DNA of 37,141 nt from an uncultured bacterium. Lineage in GTDB: Bacteria; Muiribacteriota; Ozemobacteria; Ozemobacterales; Ozemobacteraceae. Below the pieces are notes generated by a model that made no database searches, was not told the origin of the DNA, and saw only the letters and a program-made list of their open reading frames with translations. Positions within the stretch are counted from its first letter, which is position 1. Every line of letters begins with the position of its first letter. The stretch lies in contig CAZPCO010000003.1 of assembly GCA_964585025.1 (NCBI GenBank), forward strand, positions 1 to 37,141. Direction: 5' to 3'. Made by a program: the position numbers and the translations under genes. Below, piece by piece: positions 3,771 through 37,141 of the stretch.

Positions 3771-4027
3771 AGAATAATCTCCTGCTGAATAATACCATAG
3801 AAGACCTGCCTGACATAACCTGCCGGTCAGCAATGCCCGGCCAGCAGCAATTCTCGATGAGCTGCAAAACACCAGACATCTGAGCTTGTCGGAAGGCCGG
3901 CCCGGCAGCTTCGACGCCGCTCAGTCAACCTGCTTTGCCAGTTTCAGCAATCAGAGAAGCTACGCCTTCGCAAAATTTAACGACATTTTTTACCGAAAAT
4001 TGCTGTGCGACCAGAGCATGTCACTGT

Positions 4028-5143
4028 TTAAACAAACAGGCTGGCCATGACGTGGTCGGCGATGGCCAGCCCACGGTCGGTCAGACGCACACATTCGCCA
4101 TTTTTTTCGAGATTACCCTGAATGATCTGGTGTTCCAGCTCAGCAAAAAACTCTGTCGGCTGGGCACCGAACCTGGCCGTCAGCTGGGCAAGATCGAGAC
4201 CATCAGAGAGCAGACGCAGGCTCAGCATCAGAAACTCGTTTCGCCTGTCGATTGCCGATAGTAGTTCCTGCTGCGGCTGACAGGAATGCAGCCAGCGTTG
4301 CAGATCGGCAGGAGCAGTCAGACGCAGACCGTTACGACATGACACGGCCGATGGGCCAATACCGATGTAATCATCGGCATGCCAGTAGCCAAGATTATGG
4401 CGACAGCGGCGCCCTGGCCTGGCATAATTCGAGATTTCATAGTGCTCGAAGCCGGCAGCCAGAAGCACAGCCCGCAACTCAAAAAGCTCTTCGGGGCCGA
4501 TTTCTGAAGGATCAGGCAATTCTTTTGCTTCGATGCGACGATGCAGCGGGGTATTTGCCTCGACGGTCAAAAAGTAGGCTGAAACATGTTTGAGATCAAA
4601 ACGTTGCAGCAGAGCGGCAGCGGCCGCAGCCAGCGACGGACAACCGGGAACGCCGAGAATAAGGTCGATGCCGATGTTTTCGATTCGGGCGCAGGCAAGA
4701 TCGAGAGACCGGTAAACAGCGTCAAGCCTGGCATGCCGGCCCAGCAGCACCAGTTCACTGTCTGCAAGGCGCTGCACACCGATACTCAGTCTTATTCCCG
4801 GCAGATCCGCCAACAGATCGACAATTTCACTGGTCAGAGTTTCCGGGTTGGTCTCAAAAGTCATTTCCACAGGCGGTTTTGCAGCATAAAACGGCCTGAT
4901 AATTTCCAGCAGGCGTGTTATACCGGTCAGCCCAATGGCAGTAGGGTTGCCGCCACCGACAAAAACCGTATCGACTGCTTCAGGGCCGCCGACTCTTGCG
5001 GCAACAGCTTCTTCAGCCAGTCTTACCAGATATGCGTCGACAGAACCGCTCACCGGCACAGTCGAATAAAAACCGCAGTAATCGCATCTGCTCAGGCAAA
5101 ATGGCACATGCACATACAGCCCGGTTGAACCGCGGATTTTCAT
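4028..5143 (-). CDS. hemW: Radical SAM HemN/HemW-family protein (heme chaperone / oxygen-independent coproporphyrinogen oxidase-like)
   Basis: The radical SAM motif CLSRCDYCGFY (CxxxCxxC) lies near the N-terminus, with GGGNPT and the HemN-family segment CRHNLGYW further on. The start is set at the ATG at 5141-5143 (MKIRGSTGLYVHVPFC), which gives about 371 aa, typical for HemW. The track ORF start at 5284 would run 110 nt into the 3' end of the upstream gene. Confidence 0.8.
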   Translation of the reverse strand: MKIRGSTGLYVHVPFCLSRCDYCGFYSTVPVSGSVDAYLVRLAEEAVAARVGGPEAVDTVFVGGGNPTAIGLTGITRLLEIIRPFYAAKPPVEMTFETNPETLTSEIVDLLADLPGIRLSIGVQRLADSELVLLGRHARLDAVYRSLDLACARIENIGIDLILGVPGCPSLAAAAAALLQRFDLKHVSAYFLTVEANTPLHRRIEAKELPDPSEIGPEELFELRAVLLAAGFEHYEISNYARPGRRCRHNLGYWHADDYIGIGPSAVSCRNGLRLTAPADLQRWLHSCQPQQELLSAIDRRNEFLMLSLRLLSDGLDLAQLTARFGAQPTEFFAELEHQIIQGNLEKNGECVRLTDRGLAIADHVMASLFV

Positions 5144-11869: not shown

Positions 11870-12472
11870 TCAGTCAAGTTTTCGGGGCCGCGACCATCTG
11901 ACGAAGCAGCCCAGGGTTTCATTAACAACATTCCGGTCAAAATATTCCGGATCGAATTTTCCGGCAGTCGGCTGAACTCCGGCCGACCAGGCAACCATCG
12001 CGTCATGCTGCCGGCTTCTCGGGTTTCGGATGATTTTGCAGAATTCTTCATATCCCGGCGGGCCACCCACGTCTTCGGGTGGACATGAGCGCTCGCCTTC
12101 AATGCAGCTGATTTCACAGTCATCTTCACGCAACTGATAGTTCGCATTTTCGAGGGTAAGCCGATGCGCCCAGGATTCCCCAAAATCATAAACATACAGG
12201 CAATTATCGCCCTTCTTCTTCATATGTTTACTGAGTCGGGCTGTGCCATCGAGAAGAGTGCTTTCATCGTCGAATTCCTCGTTGATGTTCTCGACATAGC
12301 GATGACTGCCGAAATTGAATTCATGCTGATGCGAATCTTTCCAACCCATGACGATCTGAATGACATCGTGCAGCCGATCGAGCGAAAGTTCGGCAGGCAC
12401 AACAAACCTTCTCCAGATCATGGGTTCGATTTCCATCATCTCAATTTTCAACAGATAATACTTCTGTTTCAT
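11870..12472 (-). CDS. pRiA4b ORF-3-like (MM3350-like) family protein
   Basis: Family-typical segments are present: YLLKIEMMEIEPMIWRRFVVPAELSLDRLHDVIQIVMGWKDSHQHEF, CPPEDVGGPPGYEEF and FDPEYFD. The start is set at the ATG at 12470-12472 (MKQKYY), which has AAAGGCGG upstream. Confidence 0.8.
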   Translation of the reverse strand: MKQKYYLLKIEMMEIEPMIWRRFVVPAELSLDRLHDVIQIVMGWKDSHQHEFNFGSHRYVENINEEFDDESTLLDGTARLSKHMKKKGDNCLYVYDFGESWAHRLTLENANYQLREDDCEISCIEGERSCPPEDVGGPPGYEEFCKIIRNPRSRQHDAMVAWSAGVQPTAGKFDPEYFDRNVVNETLGCFVRWSRPRKLD

Positions 12473-12714
12473 CGATGGTCCGCCTTTCACGTTATGCAAT
12501 CATCCTCTGTCATCCCGGGTATTATTATACACCTCCCCCGATCACAAGCAAGCTTTCTTGCTCCAACTTCAAATCAAACACACTAAAATCATGACCTCCT
12601 GGTTAGCGCCCCGAATAACACAGGCAAAGACTGACGCCAGGGGTGGCAAACGCCAATGATGCTCTTGACGGGCTAATGGTATAATTGCAGAAAATCTTCC
12701 TGAGGTTTTCTTTC

Positions 12715-13731
12715 ATGCTTAAAAAAGCCGCTGTATATCTTTGGATTCTAATCTGTCTGCTTTCATGTTCAGGCGAACTTTTCGCCGGAACACTTCGTGA
12801 ACGCCTGAGAAATGCAATTGCAGGAAAAATTGACCAGCGTGCCATGCAGCAGGATGTCAGGTCAGAACTTAAATATCTGGATCATGGAGGCAGAAAGAGG
12901 TCTTACTACCTGTATCTGCCTGAAAGCATCGACAGGCAAAAACCGATGCCGGTCGTCTTTCTCTTTCATGGTGGCGGTGGTGGCGCACGTGGCGCGCTCT
13001 ATTCATATGGACTCGAGAAAAAGGCCGATGAAGCCGGATTTATTCTTGTTGCACCGAACGGCACCGGTGAAACTGAAAACATTCTTCTGACCTGGAACGT
13101 CGAATTTGGCTTTGGTTATGCTCAGAAACACAATGTCGATGATATCGGCTTCGTCAATGCCATCATCGATCAACTTAACACTACCTGTGCTATCGATCAA
13201 AGGCGCATTTTCGCCACCGGGCTTTCAAACGGTGCTATTTTTTGTCATTTTCTTGCCGCTCACCCGGGCAATCGTTTCGCAGCAATCGCCCCAGTTGTCG
13301 GTACAGCCGGTGGCCGTGATCTGGAAGAGAAAAACATGCATATGCCTCCGAAGCCTGAAAAGCCGGTGTCGGTATGCATGATTCAGGGCTTGGTCGATGA
13401 GCATATTCCGATCGAAGGAGGCCGACAGAAAAAATCTCTCGGAAGCCCTAAATTCCTCCTTTCAGCATCTGACACCATTGTCTTCTGGGTTGAGGCGAAC
13501 AGCTGTAATCCGGTCGCCTCAAGCACTTACAACGACAGATTGCAGAGCACCCTTTTCCATTACGGCAATGGTCGAGAGCAGAGCGAAGTCACCGCCTGGG
13601 TAGTCCACAACCTCGGACATGCCTGGCCCGGCTCGACGCGCACCCCGCGCCGTGGCTCCGACAAACCACCACAACAATTCAAAGCCAACGACATCATCTG
13701 GGATTTTTTCAAAAGTCACCCTCTTCCTTGA
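12715..13731 (+). CDS. Secreted (possibly lipoprotein) esterase, PHB-depolymerase/LpqC-like alpha/beta hydrolase
   Basis: The ATG at 12715 has GAGG 9 nt upstream. The signal sequence is MLKKAAVYLWILICLLSC. Family-like segments are YYLYLP...PVVFLFHGGGGG and the nucleophile elbow GLSNG. Confidence 0.75.
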   Translation: MLKKAAVYLWILICLLSCSGELFAGTLRERLRNAIAGKIDQRAMQQDVRSELKYLDHGGRKRSYYLYLPESIDRQKPMPVVFLFHGGGGGARGALYSYGLEKKADEAGFILVAPNGTGETENILLTWNVEFGFGYAQKHNVDDIGFVNAIIDQLNTTCAIDQRRIFATGLSNGAIFCHFLAAHPGNRFAAIAPVVGTAGGRDLEEKNMHMPPKPEKPVSVCMIQGLVDEHIPIEGGRQKKSLGSPKFLLSASDTIVFWVEANSCNPVASSTYNDRLQSTLFHYGNGREQSEVTAWVVHNLGHAWPGSTRTPRRGSDKPPQQFKANDIIWDFFKSHPLP

Positions 13732-15468: not shown

Positions 15469-17115
15469 TTAACGTGAGACAAAATTGAAGTTCAGTCTGG
15501 CAACCGGCAGTGCCTTTCGATCACGGTTTGCAGCGTATTCAGACAAAATGACCGCCGGATCAGGCTTAACCGGTGCATCATGAATGACTCTGCCGTTGAA
15601 AATAACCCTGACCGGGCGCGTCAGGTCAAAATGCCCGGGAGTAACGGCTATCACCAGCTTCGCAACTCTGGAACCGGCAACTATAACCTCATTGCCATTT
15701 TTTTCAGCCCTGAGCGCGGCCGACGGTCCATCGCGTCTGAAAAGGAACCAGCCCTCAGGCTGCGGCAGGATACCGGGCAGTCGTAGTCTTTTGCCGAACC
15801 GACTGACGACAAATTCGAATGGTTGGCCACACCTGGCAGATTCCTTCGCAGCCTTGAGACTGAAGGAATCGCCGATATCGCAGCCGCCGGCCTGGCGGAG
15901 CACATCGCCGCAGCGCAGGCCAATTGCTTCGGCATAACCACCGCGATCGATTCGGTTGATGGTGATGCCTTCTTTGCCGCGGATGCCGGAAAAACCCCAG
16001 TTGATTGCCTCGTCGGTCAGAATGCAGTTATGGTCGACATGCCAGTCGGCAGCCGGCCAGGGGCCGATTTCAGCAATCTGCAACCAGCGACAGGCGCCGA
16101 ATTCGACATCCCCAGTTTCCCAGAAGATGCTGTCAGGCAGAGTATTACGGTGCTGCCGGCGTAGATATTGCCCGATCAGGGGCATTTCACTGGCGTGGTA
16201 GGCAAAGTCATGACCGCCGTGCAGCTGACGGTAGTGAATATTGGCGCCGGCACGACAGGCCATTGCAATAGCCGGCGCCATCTGCCTGGTCGGATAATAC
16301 TCATCGTTGTCGGTGGTAACTGCATAAACCGGTGTCATTGCCAGATTTGGCGCATACAACGGCAACTTGCCGTCAAGACTGCCGACTCCCATGTGCCCAT
16401 TCAATGCAACAATCGCCGCAAAGTCATCAGGCAGCAGCATTGCGTGCAGAAAACTGCCTGAAGCGCCATCAGAAAAGCCGCCGAGAAATACCCGGTTGTC
16501 GTCAATGTTTACATGGTATTTAACCGTTCTGATCAGGCGCCTGATGCCGGCCATACCTGTGCTGTCCCACCAGGTGGAGCCTTCCTGGCCGAACGGAAAC
16601 AGCAGCACCCAGCCATGTTCACGGGCCAGAGAAAACCAGGGTGATTCTTTGATAGTTTCAACGGGGTCTTCGTAGATATTCCTGCGCGAAACACCGCCAT
16701 GCAGTGCCACCAGCATCGGCAAAGACCGATATGAAGCAATCTGCGGGGGTAGATAAAGACCCCATGGCCGACTTACTCCATCGGTTCCGATGATACGGTT
16801 CAGCATCAGAATCTCATCGCCCGGTGCTGCCATTTTCTTATCGGCAAGGTGATTTTTTAAACCGGCAAGCTGCCGACTCAGAAGCTTTCGCTGCCGCAAT
16901 GGCCGGCTAACGATAAAATCTCGCAACGCCCGCCAGTCAGGTACCAATGCTGCAGCTGCTTCAATTTCCGCACTTGACGGGGGCCGGTCTCCGGCATCGA
17001 CTTCGGCCAGCGAAACAAAACCCCGCTGCAGCAGCTGATCGATACTGGTCTGCCAGTCATCAGCCCTGACTCCGGCCACCGAAAATATAAAAACCAACGC
17101 CAGAAAAAATCTCAA
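15469..17115 (-). CDS. Secreted alpha/beta hydrolase (esterase / S9-like) with C-terminal PDZ domain
   Basis: Hydrolase segments include LYLPP...PMLVALHGG and the nucleophile elbow GFSDGASG. The PDZ-like segment is GYAEAIGLRCGDVLRQAGG. I prefer the in-frame TTG at 17113-17115 because GGGAGG lies 6 nt upstream and it yields the signal peptide (M)RFFLALVFIFSVAGVRA. The track start at 17382 adds 89 aa that do not look like a signal peptide. Confidence 0.7.
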   Translation of the reverse strand: MRFFLALVFIFSVAGVRADDWQTSIDQLLQRGFVSLAEVDAGDRPPSSAEIEAAAALVPDWRALRDFIVSRPLRQRKLLSRQLAGLKNHLADKKMAAPGDEILMLNRIIGTDGVSRPWGLYLPPQIASYRSLPMLVALHGGVSRRNIYEDPVETIKESPWFSLAREHGWVLLFPFGQEGSTWWDSTGMAGIRRLIRTVKYHVNIDDNRVFLGGFSDGASGSFLHAMLLPDDFAAIVALNGHMGVGSLDGKLPLYAPNLAMTPVYAVTTDNDEYYPTRQMAPAIAMACRAGANIHYRQLHGGHDFAYHASEMPLIGQYLRRQHRNTLPDSIFWETGDVEFGACRWLQIAEIGPWPAADWHVDHNCILTDEAINWGFSGIRGKEGITINRIDRGGYAEAIGLRCGDVLRQAGGCDIGDSFSLKAAKESARCGQPFEFVVSRFGKRLRLPGILPQPEGWFLFRRDGPSAALRAEKNGNEVIVAGSRVAKLVIAVTPGHFDLTRPVRVIFNGRVIHDAPVKPDPAVILSEYAANRDRKALPVARLNFNFVSR

Positions 17116-17241
17116 GTTTCGCCTCCCATGACTGCCAATCAGTGTAACACCCACCGCATCTACCGACAAGAATAGCCGATAATTGATCATTTGCGGGGCA
17201 GATGTTATCATGGGCAGCAAATTAACTTTGTGGAGAAACAG

Positions 17242-17430
17242 ATGCAGAAATTCGCTATTGCCATCGGGCTGCTGCTTTCTCTTCTCTTTCTCACCGGCAG
17301 CAATGTCAATGCCGAAACCACCGAACCCGCTTCGCAAATGCACCGCACCCGGTCGATCATATATGCAGCATCCCGAACCCAACCCACACTCATAACCAGT
17401 GAGCCAGCTGAAAATGTCAGAAACCGCTAA
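17242..17430 (+). CDS. Small hypothetical secreted protein (62 aa)
   Basis: GGAG lies 7 nt upstream of the ATG at 17242. The predicted signal peptide is MQKFAIAIGLLLSLLFLTGSNVNA, followed by a short polar tail. The ORF overlaps the mnmA start by 17 nt. I recognise no homology. Confidence 0.3.
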   Translation: MQKFAIAIGLLLSLLFLTGSNVNAETTEPASQMHRTRSIIYAASRTQPTLITSEPAENVRNR

Positions 17431-23553: not shown

Positions 23554-23916
23554 TTAAAATTCTTTCGAAGCTTCTTCAAGGCTGTCATAGGTCTTGATGA
23601 TGTGCTGCAGCTGAATAAGCTGGAAAATACCATAAATATACGCGTTCAGACTGATCAGAACCAGCTCGCCACCGGCATCACGCAATTTTTTGAGAGTGCC
23701 GATAAAAAAGCCGAGGCCTGAAGAATCTATGTAATTGGTTCTTTCAAGGTCGAGAACCACTTTTACCTTGTTTTCGTCAACCAGCTTCTGAATCTGTTCT
23801 TTTGCAACCGGCAGGGTCCACATGTCGAGGTCGCCGATCAGCGACAGCACGACATAGCCCTTGGTGGCATCTTTTCTTTCGAAGCTCAGTTTATCTTTTT
23901 CTTTCTGGTCGGTCAT
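23554..23916 (-). CDS. STAS-domain protein (SpoIIAA/RsbV-like anti-sigma-factor antagonist)
   Basis: The segment LDLERTNYIDSSGLGFFIGTLKKL carries the canonical DSSG phospho-serine context. The ATG at 23914-23916 is preceded by GGAGGA. The track ORF start at 24018 would overlap the ComFB gene. Confidence 0.8.
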   Translation of the reverse strand: MTDQKEKDKLSFERKDATKGYVVLSLIGDLDMWTLPVAKEQIQKLVDENKVKVVLDLERTNYIDSSGLGFFIGTLKKLRDAGGELVLISLNAYIYGIFQLIQLQHIIKTYDSLEEASKEF

Positions 23917-23945
23917 TTCGTCCTCCACAGGGAAGTATGGCACAA

Positions 23946-24239
23946 TCAACTGTGCCTTGGTCTGCTGCGAACAATTTCGATGGCCTTGCAAACCGCCATG
24001 GTGACGTTTGCCTGCCATTGCGAAGACTCTAAATCTACATTGGTAACGGCATTACCAATATTGGTCACCACGTATTTGGGCGGCAGCGAATTCAAAGCCA
24101 AAGCCAGAATATCGAGAGTGCAGCGGGCGCAAGAACAGGCAGTTTCGCCCTTCTTTGCCAGCATCTGACTCGTGATCTGCCTGACCACGCTCTCCATTTT
24201 ATTCACTAATACTATTTCATCCATTTTATTGTCATCCAA
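23946..24239 (-). CDS. ComFB-family protein
   Basis: The ~95-aa protein contains VLVNKMESVV...CSCARCTLDILALALNSLPPKYV...WQANV...AIEIV, which matches my recollection of the ComFB fold family. The start is either the TTG at 24239 (overlapping the upstream stop by 8 nt) or the ATG at 24224. Confidence 0.7.
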   Translation of the reverse strand: MDDNKMDEIVLVNKMESVVRQITSQMLAKKGETACSCARCTLDILALALNSLPPKYVVTNIGNAVTNVDLESSQWQANVTMAVCKAIEIVRSRPRHS

Positions 24240-25155
24240 GCTTGGTTCTGAGTGTTTTCGGATCTATATCGAGCAATCGTGCCGCTTTAAGCTTGTTACC
24301 GCCCGCATACTCAAGAACCTTCTTTACATACATGCGTTCCATCTCGGCAAGAGTGTATATCCTGTCTTCTACAGGGTTGTCACCACCAGCCGCTGAAGGC
24401 TGCCTGATCTTCTCAGGAAAGTCTTCAGGCTCTACCTGCGAGCTTCTCGAAAGAACGACCGACCGTTCGATCACATTGCGCAGCTCTCTGACATTGCCGG
24501 GCCAGCTGTAGTTCTGCAGCGTCTGCAGCGCCTGCCTGCTGATGCAGAGATCGGGCTTGTTGTATTTGGCCCTGAATTCCTGGACAAAGGCCTCAACTAT
24601 CTCGGCAACGTCTTCCATACGCTCACGCATTGGCGGAATATGAATCTCGACGACATTCAGCCGGTAATAAAGATCTTCACGGAACCGCCCGCGCTTGATT
24701 TCATCGAGCAGATTCTTGTTGGTGGCTGCAAGAATGCGAACATCGACCTTGATGGTATTGTTACCGCCGATTCTTTCGAATTCCTGTTCCTGCAGAACCC
24801 GCAGTAGTTTCGTCTGCGTCATCATCGACATGTCACCGATTTCATCAAGAAACAATGACCCGCCGTCGGCGCGTTCGAAACAGCCTTCCTGGCGGCTGAC
24901 CGCCCCGGTGAAGGCACCACGCTCATGCCCGAACATTTGACTTTCAAGGAGCTCAGAAGGTATTGCCGCACAGTTCATCTTCAAAAACGGTCGCGTCTTT
25001 CGGGGACTCAGCTGCTGAATCGTTTCAGCAACCATCTCCTTGCCGGTACCGCTTTCGCCGGTGATAAGAACCGTCACATCGTTTCCAGCTACTTTCGATA
25101 CCAGATCGAGAACATCTTTGATCGTATCGCTTGAACCGATTATCTTTGATTTCAT
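24232..25155 (-). CDS. Sigma-54-dependent transcriptional activator consisting only of the AAA+ and Fis-type HTH domains
   Basis: The motifs are Walker A GESGTGKE, GAFTGA, Walker B LFLDEIG, RVLQEQEFERIGG, and YSWPGNVRELRN. The C-terminal HTH reads GGNKLKAARLLDIDPKTLRTKL. The protein begins directly at the AAA+ core (MKSKIIGSSDTIKDV) from the ATG at 25155, so there is no receiver, GAF or PAS domain. Confidence 0.85.
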   Translation of the reverse strand: MKSKIIGSSDTIKDVLDLVSKVAGNDVTVLITGESGTGKEMVAETIQQLSPRKTRPFLKMNCAAIPSELLESQMFGHERGAFTGAVSRQEGCFERADGGSLFLDEIGDMSMMTQTKLLRVLQEQEFERIGGNNTIKVDVRILAATNKNLLDEIKRGRFREDLYYRLNVVEIHIPPMRERMEDVAEIVEAFVQEFRAKYNKPDLCISRQALQTLQNYSWPGNVRELRNVIERSVVLSRSSQVEPEDFPEKIRQPSAAGGDNPVEDRIYTLAEMERMYVKKVLEYAGGNKLKAARLLDIDPKTLRTKLG

Positions 25156-25312
25156 AGTCCGGCAAAACCTTATATGATTGAGCTTGAGCCTTATCCCCGG
25201 GGTTTTCACCACGAGAATATCACTCCGGCTCAGTCGTAATGATTGATGTTATCACAGGCCTACAGGCGTGTCAAGAACTCTCGGATAGCACCAGCAATCA
25301 GCACCAGTATCA

Positions 25313-28692: not shown

Positions 28693-28824
28693 CCGGCCGG
28701 GCACAGAAAACTTCCCCGATGGATCACAAAGGTGGTCCTGACCGGAAAACAATCGATGCATTTGGCTCTATTCTGGTTTAGCATGATTGTATTGCGTCAC
28801 AATTATTCTGCCCGAGGACTTACA

Positions 28825-30819
28825 ATGCATTCAGATTTTTCCGATCATGTTGCTATCGGCCAATTGCCGAGACCATTCAGTCCGGCAGCAAAATTGATCA
28901 GTAACATCCGGCATTTGCTGCTTGTCGTTTGCCTTACCCTGGCAACAACTGCCTTAAGCGCAGATTCATTGCAGAAGCAGGTATTCTGCCCGGTCTGCAA
29001 CATAGAATATACAGCCTTCCTTACCGCTTCTTCGACAGCCGGGTTCTGCCTCGACGGCAGACCCACCGATGGACGCCTTGAACCTCTTGCAGAATGCCCG
29101 CTCTGTCACGGAGTTTTTCTCAAACCATCTCATACTGCCGACGAAATGAAGGCGCTGCATAAATTCATCTGGTCCGATCAGTTTCAATCTCTCCGGACTG
29201 CAACAACTGCAACCCGCTACGCTTCGATTCTTGAGAATCTTGACAGCAGCAGTTACGAGATCGCTGCCGCCTGGCTGCACGCCGCCTGGGCCGAGGAAAA
29301 TGACCAGACTGCTTTCAGGAACTGTCTCGAAAAAAGCCTGAAATTTTTCCGACTGGCACGAGAAGAAGCCAGCAAAAATGGCGAAAAGGCCAGATTTTTT
29401 GACATTTCTCTGAAAATCGCCGATCTGCTGCGCCAGCTCGAAAAATTTGCCGAAGCCACCCAATGGCTTGACGAGCTGGCCGCAGACCCGGAATGCAAAA
29501 GCAGTTGGTTGCCCGCCGTAATCAGACATTCTCGACAACTTGTAGAAGCCCGTAACAGCAAGCCCTCACAGCTCCCGCCCGGGAATCTTCTGCATGCGGC
29601 AATCAATGCCGGAAACCTCGCAGAGGCCATCAGGCTGGCCTCAAGCAGTCAAAACCTCCTCAAAGAAATAAACATTGCCGGGCATACTCCCTTGATTCTG
29701 GCAATAAACCGCAAGGATGAGCCGATGATAGATGCCCTCCTCTCAGCCGGCGCCGATAGCGCCCAAACTGATCTCGATGGCAATACCCCGCTGCACCATG
29801 CTGTATTGTCAGCCAGTCATCAGATTTTCGAGAAAATTCTCGCCAGAACCGGCAACCCCGATCCGGTGAACCGTTATAATGAAACACCTCTGCTTCTGGC
29901 CGCCCGAGTCGGCAAAGTATCGCTCATCAAGTCACTGCTGGACGCCGGTGCCGATTTCAACCATAAAGACGCCCGGGGCAATACCATTTTACATATACTC
30001 TGCACCAGACCAGGTGCCGGCCGCGAAGCAATCGTCGAAAGGCTTGCCAGTCAGGTTCGCGATGTCAATCTGCGCAATTTCGATGACCGCACCCCGTTGC
30101 ATCTTGCTGTCATGGCCGGGAACCTTGCCGCAGTCAACTCATTGCTCGATGCCGGCGCCAGAATCGATGCCCGACTTCCTGATGGTTCCGCTGTGCTCTT
30201 TTTCTGCAAACCCCTGCTGATTTCAAACCTGATTGGCAAAGGGGCTGATATAACCCTGCAGAACAATGCCGGTTACAACGTCATGGTTAACGCCAGAATC
30301 AATGGCGATCTTGAAAGGGTTGCCTTTCTGAAGAAAACCGGTCGCTTCGGCAGGAGATCACGACGTTTCAATGTGAATGGTCACGAAACTGATATTTTTG
30401 CCGCAGTGCAGGCAGAAAACCTTCAGGACATCCGGGAAATCGTCAAACTCGACCGCAAAGAGCTCGATGCCCGCGAACCCGAGCTTTCAGCAACCCCCCT
30501 GCATCTGGCTGCTGAACTTGGCAACCCTGAAGTGGTCAGACAGCTCATCGACCTTGGCGCCAAGATTGAAGCGACCAATGATTTTCTCCGTACGCCGATT
30601 CATTACGCTGCATCAAGAGGCAATCTCGAAGCACTCAAAGTTCTCCATCAGGCTGGAGCCAACATTCAGGCCGTCGATGCACGTGGTTCGACTCCCATGC
30701 ACGACGCAGCCGCCGCCAGGCATCGCAATGTTTACGTCTACCTCAGCGAACTGAATGCCAGCGACACCACCCGCGACAATGCAGGTTACACCCCTGCCGA
30801 ACTTTTTCAGGAACCTTGA
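28825..30819 (+). CDS. Large ankyrin-repeat protein with N-terminal signal/anchor, CxxC...CxxC zinc-ribbon-like element and a helical TPR-like region
   Basis: GAGGA lies 6 nt upstream of the ATG at 28825. The hydrophobic segment is IRHLLLVVCLTLATTALSA. A possible zinc ribbon reads FCPVCN...ECPLCHG. About 11-12 ANK repeats follow (GHTPLILAI..., GNTPLHHAV..., ETPLLLAA..., RTPLHLAV..., ATPLHLAAELGNPEVVRQLIDLGA..., RTPIHYAA..., STPMHDAA...). Confidence 0.85.
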   Translation: MHSDFSDHVAIGQLPRPFSPAAKLISNIRHLLLVVCLTLATTALSADSLQKQVFCPVCNIEYTAFLTASSTAGFCLDGRPTDGRLEPLAECPLCHGVFLKPSHTADEMKALHKFIWSDQFQSLRTATTATRYASILENLDSSSYEIAAAWLHAAWAEENDQTAFRNCLEKSLKFFRLAREEASKNGEKARFFDISLKIADLLRQLEKFAEATQWLDELAADPECKSSWLPAVIRHSRQLVEARNSKPSQLPPGNLLHAAINAGNLAEAIRLASSSQNLLKEINIAGHTPLILAINRKDEPMIDALLSAGADSAQTDLDGNTPLHHAVLSASHQIFEKILARTGNPDPVNRYNETPLLLAARVGKVSLIKSLLDAGADFNHKDARGNTILHILCTRPGAGREAIVERLASQVRDVNLRNFDDRTPLHLAVMAGNLAAVNSLLDAGARIDARLPDGSAVLFFCKPLLISNLIGKGADITLQNNAGYNVMVNARINGDLERVAFLKKTGRFGRRSRRFNVNGHETDIFAAVQAENLQDIREIVKLDRKELDAREPELSATPLHLAAELGNPEVVRQLIDLGAKIEATNDFLRTPIHYAASRGNLEALKVLHQAGANIQAVDARGSTPMHDAAAARHRNVYVYLSELNASDTTRDNAGYTPAELFQEP

Positions 30820-30970
30820 ACCGCATTGACAATTTTTCCTGCTGAATGTGATCTGATCGCACCCGAACGGAATGCGACCGCTTCAGTATCTGCCCACTTA
30901 ACTGTTACATAAATTGATACTGAATAGCCGCAGCCCGAATATATCAATGGCAGATGGGTAAAAAATCCTG

Positions 30971-30976
30971 TATAAT
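30971..30976 (+). promoter_or_regulatory. Candidate -10 box upstream of the DUF2760/Hsp70 module
   Basis: A perfect TATAAT lies 35 nt upstream of the ATG at 31012. No convincing -35 element sits at 17±1 bp, so this is only a candidate. Confidence 0.2.
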
Positions 30977-31011: not shown

Positions 31012-32193
31012 ATGAAAAAAGCTGCAGCTTTTCTGACCCTGCTGGCCCTGCTGGTGATGACCGGCGGCGCCCTTTACCTGCAGCAGCGCGAAGCTTCACC
31101 GAAGCTCAGCGATCTGCAACCTGCCCTCGACAATTTAAAAACTTTTATACCTGAAACTCTCCAGATGCCTGCCGCTGCTGGCATCTCCGTTCTTATGCTT
31201 CTGGTTTTCCTCCTTGCACTGGCTGTTCTCTTTGAACGCCGCAGTCTGCCCGTTATCGAATCAGCCACCAAACCAGCCGAAACCCCGGCCGTAGAAAATA
31301 AAGCCCATGCCGAACTCGAGCTTCTCAAAAAGAAAGTCGAGGAGGCCGAAAGCACTCAAGCAGCCCTCAAACGTCAGATCAACGACCTCGACGCTGACAA
31401 TGCCGGTCTCAAAGGCCAGCTCGAAAAACTTCGCTCTGCTCCCGCAGCCGACAAAGAACTTGAAAAGGCCATGCAGCAGGCTGCCGACCTTGAAAACCGG
31501 ATAAAAGAAGCTTCTGCCGCACGCGAAAAGCTGGTCACCGAGCAGCAGCAATCCCTGCTGGAAGTTAAGAATGCTCTCAACGAACGCAACCGCCTGCAGA
31601 CAGAAGTCGACGCTCTGATTGCCCGGGCCGAAAAATCCGAAAACGATGCAAAAAGTGCCCGCCGTGACAGCGAAAAGGTTTCCGGTCAGCTGAAAACCGC
31701 CCAGTCAGAACTCGAAAAGAAAAGCGACGAAATCACCAACCTTCGCCAGCAGCTTGAAACGCTCAACAATGAACTCAAATCAGCCCGTGCTAATCAGAAA
31801 GGTGGCAAAGAAGCCATTCCGCCGGCCGCATATCAGATTCTCTATCTATTTCAGAAGGAAGGGCGCCTGATCGACCTGCTCAGCGAAGATATTTCCGAAC
31901 TCGATGATGAAACTCTCGGCGGCGCTATCAGGCCAATTCACGAGGGCTGCCGACGTCTGCTCGCCGACCGTCTGATTCTTGAACGCGTACTCAACGAAGA
32001 AGAAGGCAGTATCGTTACCCTCGACGAAATCGACCCCGAGGCCGTCAAACTCTCGGGGCGCGTTCCACCAGCCGGACCATACAAGGGCGAACTCATACAC
32101 CGCGGCTGGCGGCTCAAAGAATGTAATCTTCCCGAACTTGTAGACGGCTGGAAAGGCAACGTCATCGCCCCGGCCGAAGTTGAAATCAGCTGA
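31012..32193 (+). CDS. Membrane-anchored coiled-coil protein with a C-terminal DUF2760-like domain
   Basis: GAGG lies 6 nt upstream of the ATG at 31012. Two hydrophobic helices are present (AAAFLTLLALLVMTGGALYL and AAAGISVLMLLVFLLALAVLF), with basic residues on the inferred cytoplasmic side. About 170 aa of heptad-rich Glu/Lys/Leu/Gln sequence follow. The C-terminal ~115 aa (AYQILYLFQKEGRLIDLL...IHEGCRRLL...) I assign to DUF2760 from memory only. Confidence 0.7.
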   Translation: MKKAAAFLTLLALLVMTGGALYLQQREASPKLSDLQPALDNLKTFIPETLQMPAAAGISVLMLLVFLLALAVLFERRSLPVIESATKPAETPAVENKAHAELELLKKKVEEAESTQAALKRQINDLDADNAGLKGQLEKLRSAPAADKELEKAMQQAADLENRIKEASAAREKLVTEQQQSLLEVKNALNERNRLQTEVDALIARAEKSENDAKSARRDSEKVSGQLKTAQSELEKKSDEITNLRQQLETLNNELKSARANQKGGKEAIPPAAYQILYLFQKEGRLIDLLSEDISELDDETLGGAIRPIHEGCRRLLADRLILERVLNEEEGSIVTLDEIDPEAVKLSGRVPPAGPYKGELIHRGWRLKECNLPELVDGWKGNVIAPAEVEIS

Positions 32194-32206
32194 GGAGAAC
32201 CCAGCC

Positions 32207-34000
32207 ATGGCAAAAGCTAAATACATCGTCGGCATCGACCTCGGAACCACCAACATCGTTCTCAGCTATGCCCCGCTGGCAGCCGGCAATGGCGACGAAC
32301 CCGCCCAGATCAGCCTGATGCCGATCGTTCAGGAACTCGCCAAAGGGGCCATCGAAAAGCTCGATGTTCTGCCTTCTTTCATTTTTGAACGTCTGAAAGA
32401 AAAACCTGTCTTCACCTGGGAAGACGACGCCCAGTATATTATCGGTGACTATGCCCGCGAGCGCGGTGCTGAGGTTCCAGACCGCCTTATTTCATCAGCC
32501 AAGTCATGGCTGTGCAATACCCGCATCGACCGAACCCAGCCGGTTTTACCCTGGAATTCACCCGAAGAAAATGCAAAAATTTCACCGCTGCAGGCGATGG
32601 CCACTTTCCTGCGTCACGTCAGACACACCTGGAGTGAAGAATTTGCCAAAGATAAACTCGAAGACCAGAAAGTCGTAGTAACCATCCCGGCTTCATTCGA
32701 TGCAGCCGCGCGCGATTTAATCGTGGAAGCTGCACGCATGGCCGGTCTTCCGACCATTACATTACTGGAAGAACCTCAGGCAGCATTTTATTCCTGGATA
32801 TCGCAGAGCGACAAACCATGGCGACAGCAGGTTAAAAAGGGTGACGTGGTTCTCGTCGTCGACGTAGGCGGCGGAACTTCCGACTTCAGCCTGATCGAGA
32901 TCAGCGAATCCGACGGCGATCTGGCCCTTGAACGCGTCGCGGTCGGCAATCACATACTTCTGGGCGGCGATAATATGGATCTTACGCTCGCTTATGTCGC
33001 CCGTCGCAAGCTCGAAGAGAGCAATAAGAAGATCAGCCAGTGGCAGACAGTTCAGCTCAGCCACCAGTGCCGCAAAGCAAAAGAAACCCTTCTTTCCGAT
33101 CCAACGAAAGATTCGGTGCCGATAGTCATTTCCGGCCGCGGCAGCAGCGTCATCGGCGGTTCTCTGAAAACTACGATCGAACGCGCTGACATCGAAAAAA
33201 CGCTGATCGATGGCTTTTTTCCATTCTGCAATATGAGTGATGATCCTGCCGAAGACACTCAGGGCGGGGTGCGCGAAGTCAGCCTGATGTATGCAGCTGA
33301 TCCGGGCATTACCCGACATCTTGCAAAATTTCTGCGCAGCCAGAATGCCGGTGAACGCCAGTATGGGTTTCCGAAGGCAATTCTGTTCAATGGCGGTGTC
33401 TTTCGATCGGAAATTTTCCGTAACCGCCTGATCGAAGTCATCAACAACTGGCTTGCAAGCGCCGGCCATGAGAACATAAGGGTTCTCGAAGGTATCGAAC
33501 TTTCGCAGGCCGTAGCCCGAGGGGCGACCTACTACGGCATTGCCCGCGAAGGCAAGGGCATCAGAATCCGTGGCGGTGTTTCCCAGGCCTATTATCTCGG
33601 CATTGAATCGTCACTGCCTGCCGTACCGGGCTTCAAACCGCCCCTCAAGGCTCTCTGTGTTGCGAAGCAGGGCACTGAAGAAGGCACCATTTCGGATGTT
33701 CCCGGGCGCACCTTCGGCCTGGTGATCGGGCGCAAGGCAGAGTTCAAGTTTTTCAAATCCAACTGCAGGCGTGAAGACGACTTCGGCCAGATGATCGACG
33801 AAATCGACGACAGCTTCGAAGATACCAGTGCCCTGCAGATAGAACTGCCGGCCTATGAAGGCATGAAAGCCGGCGACCTCGTTGACGTGGGTCTGCAGGT
33901 CGCAATTACCGAGATCGGCACTCTCGAAGTCTATTGTCTGGCCCGCAAGGGCGAACACCGTTGGAAGCTTGAATTCAACGTCAGAGAAAACCTGAAGTAA
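32207..34000 (+). CDS. Non-canonical Hsp70-family ATPase (about 597 aa, no helical lid)
   Basis: GAGGAG lies 9 nt upstream of the ATG at 32207. The NBD motifs are GIDLGTTN, VVTIPASFD, EEPQAAFY, VDVGGGTSDFSLI, GGDNMDL, LFNGG and AVARGATYYG. The NBD is followed by only about 150 aa of beta-rich sequence. Confidence 0.9.
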   Translation: MAKAKYIVGIDLGTTNIVLSYAPLAAGNGDEPAQISLMPIVQELAKGAIEKLDVLPSFIFERLKEKPVFTWEDDAQYIIGDYARERGAEVPDRLISSAKSWLCNTRIDRTQPVLPWNSPEENAKISPLQAMATFLRHVRHTWSEEFAKDKLEDQKVVVTIPASFDAAARDLIVEAARMAGLPTITLLEEPQAAFYSWISQSDKPWRQQVKKGDVVLVVDVGGGTSDFSLIEISESDGDLALERVAVGNHILLGGDNMDLTLAYVARRKLEESNKKISQWQTVQLSHQCRKAKETLLSDPTKDSVPIVISGRGSSVIGGSLKTTIERADIEKTLIDGFFPFCNMSDDPAEDTQGGVREVSLMYAADPGITRHLAKFLRSQNAGERQYGFPKAILFNGGVFRSEIFRNRLIEVINNWLASAGHENIRVLEGIELSQAVARGATYYGIAREGKGIRIRGGVSQAYYLGIESSLPAVPGFKPPLKALCVAKQGTEEGTISDVPGRTFGLVIGRKAEFKFFKSNCRREDDFGQMIDEIDDSFEDTSALQIELPAYEGMKAGDLVDVGLQVAITEIGTLEVYCLARKGEHRWKLEFNVRENLK

Positions 34001-36777
34001 TGAGCAGAGCAAACGCTGCAGACACAAGATTCATCATTGGCATCGACCTGGGGACCACCCAGTGCGCTCTTTCATATGTCGATCTTGAAGACAAGAATCT
34101 GAAAGTGCGCAATCTTGAGATCGCGCAACTGGTCAGCGGCGGCATGCTTGAAAATCTGCCGACCCTGCCATCGGTGATCTACCTCTGCGAAGAAGAGCGA
34201 GCCGTCAACCGCCCACCCTGGATGCGCCAGGACGGCATGATCGTCGGCGCTTACGCAAAAGAACTCGGGTTCGAAATTCCCGGTCGCTTTGTGCACAGCA
34301 GCAAATCATGGCTCTGCCACCCGCGCGCCGAGCGCCAGTCACCGATACTGCCATGGCAGAGCGAAGTGGTCGACCGCAAAATTTCTCCGGTCGAGGCCGC
34401 TACCGAATATCTGGCCTATCTGTCCCGTCTCTGGGATGCCACAATCGGCGCCAACAACGAAGCGTTCACTTTTGTGCGCCAGAAGGTCATTGTCACCGTT
34501 CCAGCTTCATTCGACCCTTCGGCCCGCAATCTGACGCTGGAAGCTATCGAAAAAGCCGGTATAAAATCAGTTTCGCTGATCGAAGAACCTCAGGCTGCAT
34601 TTTATGACTATCTGCAGCGCAATCCGAAAACCATGGTCGGCGAACTCAAGGGAGTCGATACGGTTCTCGTCATCGACATTGGCGGCGGCACTACCGACTT
34701 CAGTCTGATCAGAATCAACTGGTCGACTGACCGCGATTACCCCGAATTTTCGCGGCTCGCGGTTGGCCCGCATCTGCTGATCGGCGGCGACAACCTCGAC
34801 CTGGCACTGGCCAGACGCGTCGAAGCAGAATTCAAACATCGCGGCCGCAAACTGGCCGGCAAACAATGGTTGTCGCTGCTGGCTCAGAGCCACAGTAACA
34901 AAGAACAGGTATTGTCAGAAGAAGTTTCCGGGGGAGTGCATTTCAACCTCGCCGGCTCAGGCAGCAAGGTTCTCGCCGGTGCTGCCAAAATCAGTCTCGA
35001 CAGCGAAGAAATTAAGAAAACTCTGGTCGATGGCTTTTTTCCGCTTGTAGAAGCAGACGAAATGCCAGATGAAGACGATACTCTCGGCCTTTCCGAAGCC
35101 GGCTTGCCGTTCACTCGAGATGCGGCTGTCACCAGGCATCTGGCCGCTTTTCTGCGCGCCAATGACGTGAAGCCTGACGCCATTCTCTTCAACGGCGGAA
35201 CGATGAAAGCCGACTGTCTGCGCAACCGGTTGTTTGAAGTTCTTACCCTTTGGAAAGGCACAGAACCAAAGATTCTCGAGAACCCGCATCCGACACTCGC
35301 AGTTGCCGCGGGAGCCGCTTATTACGGGCTCGTGACTCTTGGCCTTGGGCAGCGCATTCAGAGCGGCAATCCAGTCTCTGTTTATCTGGGAATCGGCACT
35401 TCAAAATCATCGACTTCTTCGCGACATGTTCCAGAGCAACTGATGTGCATTCTTCCCAAAGGCTCCGAAGCCGAAAAAGACTACCACATGGCTGATAAAA
35501 CACTCGGTATCGACTTGAGCCGCGACTCAGCCTTCTATCTTTTTTATACGCCGGCCCCGCCAAAAGCAGAAGAAAGCGGGCGCCTGATCAAATTCAACTC
35601 AAAGCGCTACCTGCCGTTGCCGCCATGTATTCTCAAAGCCCGCACCAGCAAGGGCGAAAAGCAGGTCGAAATTCGTGTCAGATTACGCGAAACAGGCTAT
35701 CTGCAGATTTTTTGCGAAGAAGTCGCCGGCACCTTTTCCCAGGAACTTCGCTTCGACCTTGGCGAAAGCGATAAGGCCGGCAAAGGCGCAGCTGAAGCCC
35801 CGGCCAAACGCCGCGTGCCGCTGACCAGTTCCCAGCTCAAAAAGATCACCGCCCTGCTCGACGGTGCTTTTGCCGGAAAATCCGAATTCAACGCCGTATT
35901 TAAGGAACTGGAAGAAATCGTCGGTTCGCCGCGCACCAACTGGGATGCCGAAATGCTGCGCCAGCTCTTCGACCTTTTCATAGAACGCGAAACAGAATTC
36001 AGAAGCTCTCAGAGTTCGCTGGTTCTATGGTTCAGACTGCTTGGCTTCTGCCTTAGGCCAGGGTTCGGGGTGACAGGTGACGTCGAACGGGTTGACCGCA
36101 TCTGGAAAATGATCGACGATCAGTATGATTTCAGTAATGCCGAGTTCTGGTCTGAATGGTGGATCATGTGGAAACGCATCGCGCCCGGGCTGTCGCTCGA
36201 ACGCCAGGAAGCCCTGAAGAACAGGCTTGAACCGGTGCTTTTTCAGACCAAACGTCGCGAAAAACGTGACCGCGAAATCGGTCAGCATGAGCGTAACCAG
36301 CTCTGGAGACTGTTTGGTCACCTTGAACGTATTTCGGTGGCCGAAAAGGAACGCATCGGCTGGTGGATCATCAAAGCACCGCCCAGCTATGGCGTCGATG
36401 CCGTTGCGCTTTCCGCTCTTGCCCGACTCGGAGCCCGGGAACTCGCTTATGCTCCAGACTCCGCGATGGTTTCGCAGTCGGTGGTCAACGCATGGGCTGA
36501 ACAGCTTCTAAAAAAGGCAATTCCCGGCAATTCGTATCTTGACACCGCCCTGCGTGAAATAGGCCGCAAAACTGGTGACCGCATGGTGCAGATCGACGAC
36601 CTGCTGCGTAAGAATATTCTCGACGTTTTCAAAAAGAAAATGCGCAAGAAGGGTTTCATTCAGCCACTGCTAAAAGCGGCCCGCCTTGAAGAAAAAGAAC
36701 TTGCCGAAATGGTTGGCGAAGCTCTGCCATCAGGGTTTGTCTGGGTCAAAGACCAGCCGGCAACGAAATCGGATTAA
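34000..36777 (+). CDS. Non-canonical Hsp70-family ATPase with a C-terminal helical extension of about 336 aa (925 aa)
   Basis: The ATG overlaps the upstream TAA (TAATG at 33998-34002). The NBD motifs are GIDLGTTQ, VTVPASFD, EEPQAAFY, IDIGGGTTDFSLI, GGDNLDL, LFNGG and AVAAGAAYYG. A beta-rich segment ends near residue 588, followed by a Trp/Arg/Glu/Leu-rich tail in which I recognise no motif. Confidence 0.9.
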   Translation: MSRANAADTRFIIGIDLGTTQCALSYVDLEDKNLKVRNLEIAQLVSGGMLENLPTLPSVIYLCEEERAVNRPPWMRQDGMIVGAYAKELGFEIPGRFVHSSKSWLCHPRAERQSPILPWQSEVVDRKISPVEAATEYLAYLSRLWDATIGANNEAFTFVRQKVIVTVPASFDPSARNLTLEAIEKAGIKSVSLIEEPQAAFYDYLQRNPKTMVGELKGVDTVLVIDIGGGTTDFSLIRINWSTDRDYPEFSRLAVGPHLLIGGDNLDLALARRVEAEFKHRGRKLAGKQWLSLLAQSHSNKEQVLSEEVSGGVHFNLAGSGSKVLAGAAKISLDSEEIKKTLVDGFFPLVEADEMPDEDDTLGLSEAGLPFTRDAAVTRHLAAFLRANDVKPDAILFNGGTMKADCLRNRLFEVLTLWKGTEPKILENPHPTLAVAAGAAYYGLVTLGLGQRIQSGNPVSVYLGIGTSKSSTSSRHVPEQLMCILPKGSEAEKDYHMADKTLGIDLSRDSAFYLFYTPAPPKAEESGRLIKFNSKRYLPLPPCILKARTSKGEKQVEIRVRLRETGYLQIFCEEVAGTFSQELRFDLGESDKAGKGAAEAPAKRRVPLTSSQLKKITALLDGAFAGKSEFNAVFKELEEIVGSPRTNWDAEMLRQLFDLFIERETEFRSSQSSLVLWFRLLGFCLRPGFGVTGDVERVDRIWKMIDDQYDFSNAEFWSEWWIMWKRIAPGLSLERQEALKNRLEPVLFQTKRREKRDREIGQHERNQLWRLFGHLERISVAEKERIGWWIIKAPPSYGVDAVALSALARLGARELAYAPDSAMVSQSVVNAWAEQLLKKAIPGNSYLDTALREIGRKTGDRMVQIDDLLRKNILDVFKKKMRKKGFIQPLLKAARLEEKELAEMVGEALPSGFVWVKDQPATKSD

Positions 36778-36902: not shown

Positions 36903-37141
36903 TCAGGTGCTCTCAGTTTTGAGGCGGATCAGTTCAAAAATTTTCACCGCCTGCTGCTTGCCTCGTATTTCGGTGAACGGCATTTCTTCTGCTTCGACAT
37001 AGGCACTGACCAGGTTGAAGGTAGCGCCCGAAAAGATGATTTTTGAATGCCGGCCTTTTTTGGAAGCCGATTCCAGTCGCGAGGCAAGATTGACTTCGTC
37101 GCCGATGACCGTCAGGTCTTTGCGGCGGGAACTGCCGACAT
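36903..37141 (-). CDS. Class III adenylate/guanylate cyclase, C-terminal part (5' end off-window)
   Basis: My translation of the minus strand gives VGSSRRKDLTVIGDEVNLASRLESASKKGRHSKIIFSGATF...IRGKQQAVKIFELI, ending at a TGA (36903-36905). The VIGD.VNLASRLES segment is the hallmark of class III cyclase catalytic domains. Confidence 0.8.
   Translation of the reverse strand, partial: VGSSRRKDLTVIGDEVNLASRLESASKKGRHSKIIFSGATFNLVSAYVEAEEMPFTEIRGKQQAVKIFELIRLKTEST

Follow-up and report, generated by a model that had tools for sequence, protein, structure and literature searches.

A three-gene module of two divergent Hsp70-family ATPases and a DUF2760 protein, conserved across bacterial phyla

Hsp70 proteins are thought to depend for their action on J-proteins and on nucleotide exchange factors (NEFs). 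Besides the general chaperones there are specialised derivatives that do not belong to the heat-shock response, among them HscA with HscB, HscC with DjlC, and YegD, which are characterised by shortened or missing lids and by dedicated partners. Here we describe a three-gene module, hereafter the triad, which encodes two further Hsp70-family ATPases (genes 2 and 3) together with a protein that carries a DUF2760 domain (gene 1). It lies at positions 31012–36777 on the + strand of a stretch of 37,141 nt from an uncultured member of the Ozemobacteraceae (contig CAZPCO010000003.1, assembly GCA_964585025.1), which was analysed over its full length and is referred to below as the window. An initial annotation of this DNA had proposed that the three genes form a dedicated, membrane-tethered two-ATPase machine rather than a general chaperone, and the present analysis compares the triad with described systems, follows it across bacteria and weighs what it might do.

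The nearest descriptions in the literature come from several directions. A 2026 review treats the bacterial DnaK derivatives as ‘dark matter’ with altered or missing linkers and lids, finds them only in genomes that also have a bona fide DnaK, and proposes for them partnerships of the Hsp110 type between nucleotide-binding domains (NBDs) (PMC13580251). In the CoCoNuT type IV restriction systems the CnuD protein combines an Hsp70-like NBD and substrate-binding domain (SBD) with HEAT-like repeats; its ATPase motifs are degenerate, and it is always accompanied by, or fused to, McrB/McrC homologs and also occurs with HEPN nucleases (PMC11090510). The Stk system of Myxococcus xanthus consists of StkA, a single DnaK homolog of 540 aa, the SCP2-like StkB and the small, PhaE-like StkC (PMC4319316), and a survey of the Hsp70 proteins of the same species leaves the specific functions of the non-canonical members unknown.

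With the DnaK–DnaJ–GrpE system the triad shares the ASKHA/Hsp70 NBD, its catalytic residues, the fold of the β subdomain of the SBD (SBDβ) and an operon that seems to encode a multi-component ATP-driven machine. It differs from that system in having neither the α-helical lid nor the VLLLD linker, in its changed J-contact residues, in having no J-protein or GrpE gene within ~6–10 kb and no CIRCE operator, and in its composition, since two paralogous ATPases and a DUF2760 protein stand in place of one ATPase and two co-chaperones. The likeness to the eukaryotic Hsp70–Hsp110 pair (Sse1/Apg2) lies in the presence of two diverged Hsp70-family ATPases, the larger of which has an extended C-terminal helical region. 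Hsp110, however, keeps a SBDα of the lid type where gene 3 has a HEAT-like solenoid behind a disordered linker, and the eukaryotic pair needs J-proteins, whereas the partnership proposed here is drawn from the coupling of the genes in the operon. HscA and HscC differ from the triad in that each has a dedicated J-protein, and YegD in that it consists of an NBD only. CnuD resembles gene 3 by description, with the same domain order of NBD, SBD and HEAT-like repeats; the McrB-like GTPase, McrC (DUF2357) and HEPN proteins are nevertheless absent from the window, from the flanks of the triads and from the PADLOC matches, the motifs that are degenerate in CnuD are invariant in genes 2 and 3, and the supplements of the CoCoNuT paper mention neither DUF3731 nor DUF2760 (PMC11090510). 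The Stk operon is, like the triad, a small one in which an Hsp70-like protein has partners that are not chaperones, and it has a regulatory phenotype in exopolysaccharide production; we considered StkABC as a form of the same module and rejected it, the partners being SCP2-like and PhaE-like, with no DUF2760 and no second Hsp70. A literature search found no paper that mentions DUF2760, DUF3731, PF10816 or PF12531 or that describes the module. The families are already catalogued in Pfam and PGAP, while the system is undescribed, and its partner set and regulation are unlike those of every characterised Hsp70 machine.

Conservation of the three-gene module

Relatives of gene 3 were collected by a pattern scan with one genome per species, which yielded at least 595 confirmed members; the best 80 loci were used, and the 69 with at least 3 kb of sequence upstream of gene 3 were taken as informative. 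Genes 1, 2 and 3 stand in this order in 48 of the 69, and because the same order recurs in so many informative loci from many phyla the arrangement is not due to chance. The best 80 loci belong to Planctomycetota, Desulfobacterota, Binatia, Myxococcota, Methylomirabilota, Chloroflexota, Lentisphaerota, Fibrobacterota, Rifleibacteriota, Burkholderiales and Methylococcales, and the module is present in at least ten bacterial phyla. A further full triad, in the gammaproteobacterium Motiliproteus, was found by starting from DUF2760 proteins, and plasmids too carry it intact. The initial annotation had stated that pairs of Hsp70 genes adjoin DUF2760 genes in other bacteria and had suggested a comparison of gene neighbourhoods; the statement is borne out, the short Hsp70, the long Hsp70 and the DUF2760 gene co-occurring in the 48 loci just mentioned. 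NCBI names the three products ‘DUF2760 domain-containing protein’, ‘Hsp70 family protein’ and ‘hsp70 family protein’.

The window stems from a member of the Rifleibacteriota: the closest homologs of all three proteins, with 90–97% identity, belong to Candidatus Rifleibacterium and to metagenome-assembled genomes of Riflebacteria. Outside Rifleibacteria the median identity to the window protein is 45% for gene 2, 42% for the DUF2760 domain and 33% for gene 3, so that conservation is highest in gene 2, which evolves slowly. More than 8000 homologs of gene 3 are known, and among the matches listed all share its architecture. The tree of gene 3 largely follows taxonomy. One contig labelled ‘Candidatus Methylomirabilis sp.’ (L007, DYKG01000058.1) carries a triad 72% identical to that of the window and clusters inside Rifleibacteria, a placement which suggests that the contig was mis-binned. 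Of 72,556 plasmid records 11 contain a relative of gene 3, most of these being megareplicons of Burkholderia and Caballeronia, and in 50,697 phage records none was found. Among the plasmids is pCC829_3 of Bradyrhizobium barranii (L088), a conjugative element of 110 kb in which an intact triad lies between the trb genes and a topoisomerase/VapC region, from which it follows that the module can move horizontally as a unit.

The initial annotation had read the three same-strand genes of the window as one coupled unit, and inspection of the sequence agrees. The junction of genes 1 and 2 is TGAGGAGAACCCAGCCATG, with a gap of 13 nt; a GAGGAG Shine–Dalgarno motif, which takes in the final two bases of the TGA stop of gene 1, precedes the ATG of gene 2 at 7 nt upstream; that of genes 2 and 3 is GTAATGAGC, a one-base TAATG overlap of stop and start. 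Across the loci a spacing of no more than ~15 nt is found at 27 of 48 gene 2–gene 3 junctions and at 19 of 50 gene 1–gene 2 junctions, tight coupling thus being frequent and not universal. The three genes are predicted to be co-transcribed and are usually translationally coupled.

The module appears to be complete with these three components. Clustering of the flanking open reading frames (ORFs) of the 48 triad loci revealed no fourth conserved gene, the flanks are wholly different between phyla, and the 106 nearest neighbours fall into 145 Pfam families of which none recurs more than three times. J-proteins and GrpE, the partners that would be expected of a canonical Hsp70, were sought in particular. 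None was found in the window, as the initial annotation had also reported, either by phmmer over every stop-to-stop ORF from 60 aa upwards (E≤10) or by Pfam on the large ORFs, and phmmer with the DnaJ J-domain and GrpE (E≤10) found none within ~6–10 kb in any scanned locus. These loci include that of the close relative Rifleibacterium amylolyticum (L005), which reaches past the point where the window ends, so a pair encoded immediately outside the window, which had been raised as a concern, is not seen there.

The two ATPases and the DUF2760 protein

Both ATPases have HSP70 (PF00012) as the top Pfam match of their NBDs, gene 2 with E=3.5e-22 and 78.8 bits and gene 3 with E=3.9e-14 and 52.2 bits (gathering score 20.6), and in each case only NBD positions of the profile are matched. 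They are paralogs, collinear from end to end of the 597-residue gene 2 product (35% identity), from which gene 3 can be described as a gene-2-like core followed by a linker and then by DUF3731. Gene 2 contains the motifs GIDLGTT, EEPQAAFY, DVGGGTSDFSLI, GGDNMDL, LFNGG and AVARGATYYG, and gene 3 the corresponding variants, so that all the nucleotide-binding motifs quoted by the initial annotation are present in the translations. Common to the two are also SAKSWLC..R..R..P[VI]LPW, KTL[IV]DGFFP and [IV]TRHLA.FLR, which had been listed as signatures foreign to DnaK; they do occur in both proteins, but SAKSWLC proves to be a diverged form of a familiar Hsp70 motif, since it aligns to A-I-K-R-L-I-G of DnaK around the catalytic K70.

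This alignment (MAFFT) comprised 53 sequences of the gene 2 family and 83 of the gene 3 family together with E. coli DnaK, in whose reference sequence the letters agreed with expectation at every cited position. In DnaK numbering D8, K70, E171, D194, T199 and D201 are invariant in all 53 and all 83 sequences, in keeping with the earlier view that both proteins look catalytically competent. In both families a conserved I-[RG]-G-G stands in place of the linker VLLLD (388-DVLLLD-393). The positions of J-protein contact are altered as well, N170 to an invariant E, T173 to Q, and R167 to T, V or R. Judged by these residues, intact catalytic sites combined with a rebuilt linker and J-interface make both proteins look like active ATPases with a rebuilt allosteric and J-protein interface.

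No NCBIfam profile places the two ATPases in a characterised class. The scores for gene 2 and gene 3 are 68–70 and 50–51 bits with the DnaK models (TIGR02350 / NF001413; cut-offs 648–822), 86.1 and 68.4 bits with HscA (TIGR01991; 708.55), and 28 and 41.9 bits with YegD (NF008673 / PRK11678; 331), from which both also differ by possessing a SBDβ; no HscC-specific model is among their NCBIfam matches. Scores so far below the DnaK, HscA and YegD cut-offs, together with the loss of the lid from gene 2 and its substitution by another domain in gene 3, support the conclusion that neither is a general chaperone.

The C-terminal parts were approached by modelling. Residues 440–925 of gene 3 were modelled with AF2 (53-sequence alignment, pLDDT 85) and the folds were searched in the PDB by Foldseek. 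The β-sandwich that follows the NBD matches the SBDs of DnaK, BiP, Kar2 and HscA with probabilities of 0.99–1.00 (E from 7e-4 to 6e-3) and has TM-scores of 0.48–0.50 against the SBDβ-only chains 3h0x and 6jpv. The alignment of the two paralogs extends through this domain, after which gene 2 stops. The linker behind it is 19–39 residues long across orthologs. The remaining part, which had been described as about 336 aa of unrelated helical sequence, is in fact a catalogued domain, DUF3731 (PF12531, ‘DNA-K related protein’), matched over aa 676–913 with E=3.2e-57 and 194.7 bits (gathering score 25) at profile positions 7–246 of 248, C-terminal to the Hsp70 NBD. Its model is all-α, with ~17 helices over aa 610–905 and pLDDT of 90–97, and its top non-Hsp70 folds are the HEAT-like domain of Spiral2 (8y9r; TMt 0.48, 321 columns) and a designed helical repeat (5k7v). 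The domain has a median net charge of +7 and a pI of 9.4, and of its 35 columns conserved to at least 90%, nine are Arg and seven Trp. The fold matches suggest that gene 2 is a lidless Hsp70 and gene 3 an Hsp70 in which a HEAT-like solenoid replaces the lid. The initial annotation was therefore right about the absence of the lid from both proteins and about the end of gene 2 after a short β-rich domain, but the latter appears by its fold to be a true Hsp70 SBDβ.

In gene 1 conservation is limited to the last ~120 residues, which form the DUF2760 domain (PF10816; E=2.1e-36, 124.9 bits, gathering score 25, profile positions 4–124 of 124). Matches to PF00012 for the ATPases and to PF10816 for gene 1 had both been predicted, and both were obtained. 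Homologs of gene 1 carry PF10816 only and are annotated as DUF2760 domain-containing proteins. Invariant in the domain are Q281, R285, D288, D299, G303, A305, R307, G349, G359, H363, G365 and W366, as well as the tail APAEVE[LI], and the median net charge is −5. The AF2 model (58-sequence alignment) has a pLDDT of 83, above 90 in the core, and consists of 4–5 helices followed by 7 strands. It has no meaningful structural match in the PDB (best E=3.2, TM ≤0.2) and none in a viral structure library, all E-values over the two being above 1.5; a sequence search of the PDB with DUF2760 and DUF3731 gave nothing beyond NBD matches. The idea that the APAEVEL tail might be a free pseudo-substrate peptide for the SBDβ was rejected, since AF2 models this tail as a confident strand inside the β-sheet. 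An exhaustive profile search among 1.84 billion clusters returned 2,202 representative clusters with DUF2760, and in the best 150 of these the proteins are 135–392 aa long with the domain C-terminal in nearly all.

Upstream of DUF2760, the gene 1 product of the window has two transmembrane (TM) segments with Kyte–Doolittle scores of 2.06 and 2.92 (windows of 19 residues). KK precedes TM1 and RR follows TM2, and because positive residues thus flank the cytoplasmic ends of the segments a topology with both termini in the cytoplasm is favoured, in keeping with the cytoplasmic C-terminal part that the initial annotation had supposed. The membrane-bound long coiled coil that it had described is not general: the coiled coil of ~170 residues, which gives weak matches of coiled-coil type (SMC, Rad50, JetC, TolA_bind_tri), is confined to Rifleibacteria, other orthologs having a short Pro/Ala-rich linker instead, and a TM anchor is found in 20 of 34 orthologs. 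Two TM segments, as in the window, occur in Desulfobacterota, Binatia and Methylomirabilota, and a single one in Methylococcales. The forms without a TM segment, which include those of Planctomycetota, Burkholderiales, Lentisphaerota, Fibrobacterota and Corallococcus, have a short hydrophobic N-terminal helix in common. A DUF2760 protein of 394 aa with the Rifleibacteria-type coiled-coil architecture (44% identity) is present in data set P0189 of EukProt, the transcriptome of Anaeramoba ignava, and probably stems from a bacterial symbiont or contaminant.

A possible mechanism and its alternatives

The reading that we prefer, and hold tentatively, is that the three genes encode a self-contained, Hsp70-derived and ATP-driven machine without J-protein or GrpE, in which the two ATPases are paired in the manner of Hsp70 and Hsp110 and the DUF2760 protein acts as adaptor. 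Gene 2 and gene 3 would form a heterodimer through their NBDs and mutually regulate their nucleotide cycles, with DUF2760 taking the place of J-proteins as a targeting or activating factor. In the present organism DUF2760 would keep the machine ~170 coiled-coil residues off the inner membrane. The Arg/Trp-rich DUF3731 solenoid may bind an anionic partner or client, either the acidic DUF2760 or a specific client, and the opposite charges of the two domains speak in favour; the SBDβ domains, finally, could clamp extended polypeptide segments. The most likely role of such a machine would be the remodelling or quality control of dedicated, probably membrane-near clients and not general folding. 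Of the three roles first suggested, the handling of membrane or envelope stress is the one that the results do not disfavour. A bolder version of this proposal, which strikes us as rather doubtful, is that the triad represents an undescribed J-protein-free class of Hsp70 in which DUF2760 replaces the J-domain, DUF3731 provides an inbuilt nucleotide exchange factor or a platform for clients, and the two ATPases alternate as an obligate heterodimer. If true, it would mean that a pairing of the Hsp70–Hsp110 type has evolved independently in bacteria, with an entirely different set of co-chaperones and in at least ten phyla.

Several findings weigh against the paired, self-contained machine. The triad is not obligatory: gene 3 stands alone in 15 of the 69 informative loci, is accompanied by gene 1 only in three and by gene 2 only in another three, and a DUF2760 gene standing entirely alone was also met (L090). 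The solo cases comprise all members of a clade of Gemmataceae and Kuenenia, the others being scattered among triad-linked relatives, and no recurring partner was found beside solo gene 3, every recurring cluster being a shadow ORF (solo and split loci are L012, L016, L019, L024, L063, L074, L079 and relatives, besides L089 and L090). A search from DUF2760 proteins also led to a pair of genes 1 and 2 that lacks gene 3 and faces a MoxR/VWA/DUF58 operon in convergent orientation (L089); such pairs, taken with solo gene 3, hint at a core of genes 1 and 2 with gene 3 as a separable partner, a point in favour of the proposal. Further points against it are that the SBDβ match is one of fold only, with ~10% identity and pocket residues of DnaK that cannot be aligned (MAFFT), that 14 of the 34 gene 1 orthologs have no segment of TM grade, and that in these the hydrophobic moment of the N-terminal helix, a candidate for amphipathic binding to the membrane, is mostly within one standard deviation of shuffled sequences. 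Tethering to the membrane can therefore be stated for this organism but not for the module in general; of the machine first proposed, a dedicated and conserved module that is not a general chaperone stands, but universal tethering does not. It is possible that a J-protein or GrpE elsewhere in the genome, including a housekeeping pair, takes part, and this too would count against a self-contained machine.

Dependence on the cell's own chaperone is the substance of another explanation, according to which the two ATPases would serve the housekeeping DnaK as co-chaperones, one or both engaging it through NBD–NBD contacts as NEF or as a disaggregation enhancer like Hsp110, while DUF2760 localises them. 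HEAT- or ARM-like solenoids serve as Hsp70 NEFs in eukaryotes (HspBP1, Fes1 and Sil1), which lends interest to the solenoid of gene 3, and the operon itself encodes neither a NEF nor a J-protein. This is moreover the generic role proposed for the bacterial DnaK derivatives, which co-occur with bona fide DnaK (PMC13580251). We nonetheless regard it as plausible but unlikely, since two paralogous ATPases that are kept together and translationally coupled point to mutual partners, both of them retain catalytic residues and a SBDβ that would be superfluous in a pure NEF, and the whole module travels together on a conjugative plasmid. That same plasmid, where the triad lies beside VapC, could be quoted in favour of an anti-phage or conflict system in which the Hsp70-like proteins sense viral protein or RNA, as has been proposed for CnuD, and the membrane protein is the effector, a role that had been among those first suggested. 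The description of the CnuD domains, which equals that of gene 3 (PMC11090510), the presence of PIN, Mrr and type I restriction–modification (R-M) genes 5–8 kb downstream of the triad in R. amylolyticum, and a basic Arg/Trp-rich DUF3731 compatible with nucleic-acid binding can be added. The bulk of the evidence nevertheless makes defence very improbable. Searches of the components with PADLOC-DB 2.0 gave no significant match, only a weak generic one to PDC-M61B, which covers the NBD core with 30 and 18 bits, and noise from the coiled coil of gene 1 (LmuB, JetC), and matches among the 106 neighbours are scattered and mostly generic, with no defence-island context. No McrB/McrC, nuclease, TIR, pore-forming or other effector domain lies in or beside the module, its flanks are housekeeping genes without defence enrichment, there are no phage copies, and the few plasmid records are mostly of megareplicons. 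The tree of gene 3 is mostly taxonomic, the ~45% identity of gene 2 across phyla indicates a pace slow for a defence gene, and the degenerate motifs of CnuD, in a system whose supplements have no DUF3731 or DUF2760, contrast with the invariant ones found here.

The common ASKHA fold raises one more prospect, also among those first suggested, that of an actin-like filament with DUF2760 as membrane adaptor of a cytoskeletal scaffold. The operon does encode a membrane anchor protein, and Pfam MreB_Mbl is marginally matched by gene 2 (33.3 bits) and gene 3 (27.7 bits; gathering score 27), but these matches reflect the shared fold, as the NCBIfam MreB models score 25–32 bits with cut-offs of 293–366. 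With HSP70 as the best Pfam match, and with a K70 motif, an EEP motif (NEPTAA-like) and a true SBDβ that are Hsp70-specific, a filament former is the most far-fetched of the explanations considered.

Divergent Hsp70s as such are unsurprising; the triad makes an acknowledged open question experimentally tractable, and as a test case of three genes it offers a concrete entry point into the unexplored bacterial relatives of Hsp70. Its cultivable carriers include Burkholderia cenocepacia, B. multivorans, Methylotuvimicrobium buryatense, Corallococcus, Zavarzinella and Stieleria. Solving it would tell whether adaptors other than J-proteins can drive an Hsp70 and whether pairing of the Hsp70–Hsp110 type arose independently in bacteria. 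Two Pfam domains, DUF2760 and DUF3731, gain a genomic and structural context, the former without structural precedent.

Locus layout and genomic neighbourhood

The coordinates of the triad, of its predicted parts and of the neighbouring genes referred to below are collected in Table 1. The promoter-like site has 10 of 12 consensus matches, in a consensus scan that was overall not enriched over shuffled sequences. Its GTATAAT is invariant across four Rifleibacteria orthologs, as are the TGAGGTTC Shine–Dalgarno sequence and the ATGAA[AG]AAAGC start of gene 1, and from the conservation of these three elements it follows that the triad has its own promoter and that 31012 is the true start. A CIRCE heat-shock operator was found nowhere in the window.

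Table 1. Position of the triad, its predicted elements and selected neighbours in the window (aa, residues of the respective product)
Feature	Position	Strand	Description
Promoter-like site	30947..30976	+	ATGGCA, 18-nt spacer, TATAAT; ~35 nt 5' of gene 1
Gene 1	31012..32193	+	ORF; 393-aa protein, putative anchor/adaptor
Gene 1, N-terminal hydrophobic hairpin	31024..31233	+	TM1 aa 5-23, TM2 aa 56-74
Gene 1, coiled-coil spacer	31294..31806	+	~aa 95-265; lineage-specific
Gene 1, DUF2760 domain	31825..32184	+	aa 272-391; acidic α/β domain
Gene 2	32207..34000	+	ORF; 597-aa predicted lidless Hsp70
Gene 2, parts			NBD aa 1-448; linker equivalent IRIRGG aa 452-457; SBDβ aa 459-597
Gene 3	34000..36777	+	ORF; 925 aa; paralog of gene 2, DUF3731 at the C-terminus
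Gene 3, SBDβ-like β-sandwich	35368..35754	+	aa 457-585; pLDDT mostly 80-93
Gene 3, disordered linker	35758..35811	+	aa 587-604; pLDDT <50
Gene 3, DUF3731 domain	35827..36738	+	~aa 610-913; basic Arg/Trp-rich all-α solenoid
ORF	1682-2980	+	432 aa
pRiA4b-type gene	11870-12499	-	208 aa
ORF	12685-13731	+	348 aa
ORF	15469-17382	-	636 aa
σ54-dependent activator	23554-25212	-	Sigma54_activat + HTH_8
Ankyrin-repeat gene	28732-30819	+	large protein upstream of the triad
Cyclase gene, partial	36918-37141	-	convergent; C-terminus of HAMP + class III cyclase

The two genes that adjoin the triad in the window had been left open as possible members of it, and both turn out to be lineage-specific and to lie outside the module. 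In the large ankyrin-repeat protein upstream the first ~270 aa lie outside the repeats and match DUF2225 weakly (E=7e-5); the protein also gives a strong PADLOC match to PDC-M72A (E=1e-50) that is probably driven by the ankyrin repeats. It was rejected as a part of the module, its gene being five genes away from the triad in R. amylolyticum and absent upstream in L007 and in another of the loci (L008). The cyclase is 74% identical to its ortholog in R. amylolyticum; it was rejected likewise, being convergent and found downstream only in Rifleibacteria (L005 and L008); L007 and the other phyla lack it there. The PIN, Mrr and type I R-M genes mentioned above belong to L005.

A pair of genes for NfeD and a stomatin-like SPFH/Band_7 protein lies just upstream of the triad in three loci (in L001 at 2668–4853), which are possibly too closely related, and too few, for an association. 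The rest of the window is of housekeeping character, with genes for aldehyde:ferredoxin oxidoreductase, ThyX, PheA, TrkAH, MnmA, a σ54 activator and a hybrid histidine kinase. Pfam at E≤1e-5 matches none of the three ORFs of 432, 348 and 636 aa. Amid the housekeeping genes stands that of a ‘Plasmid pRiA4b ORF-3-like protein’ (PF07929, E=6e-56), and the gene for the σ54-dependent activator adjoins that of a STAS-domain protein.

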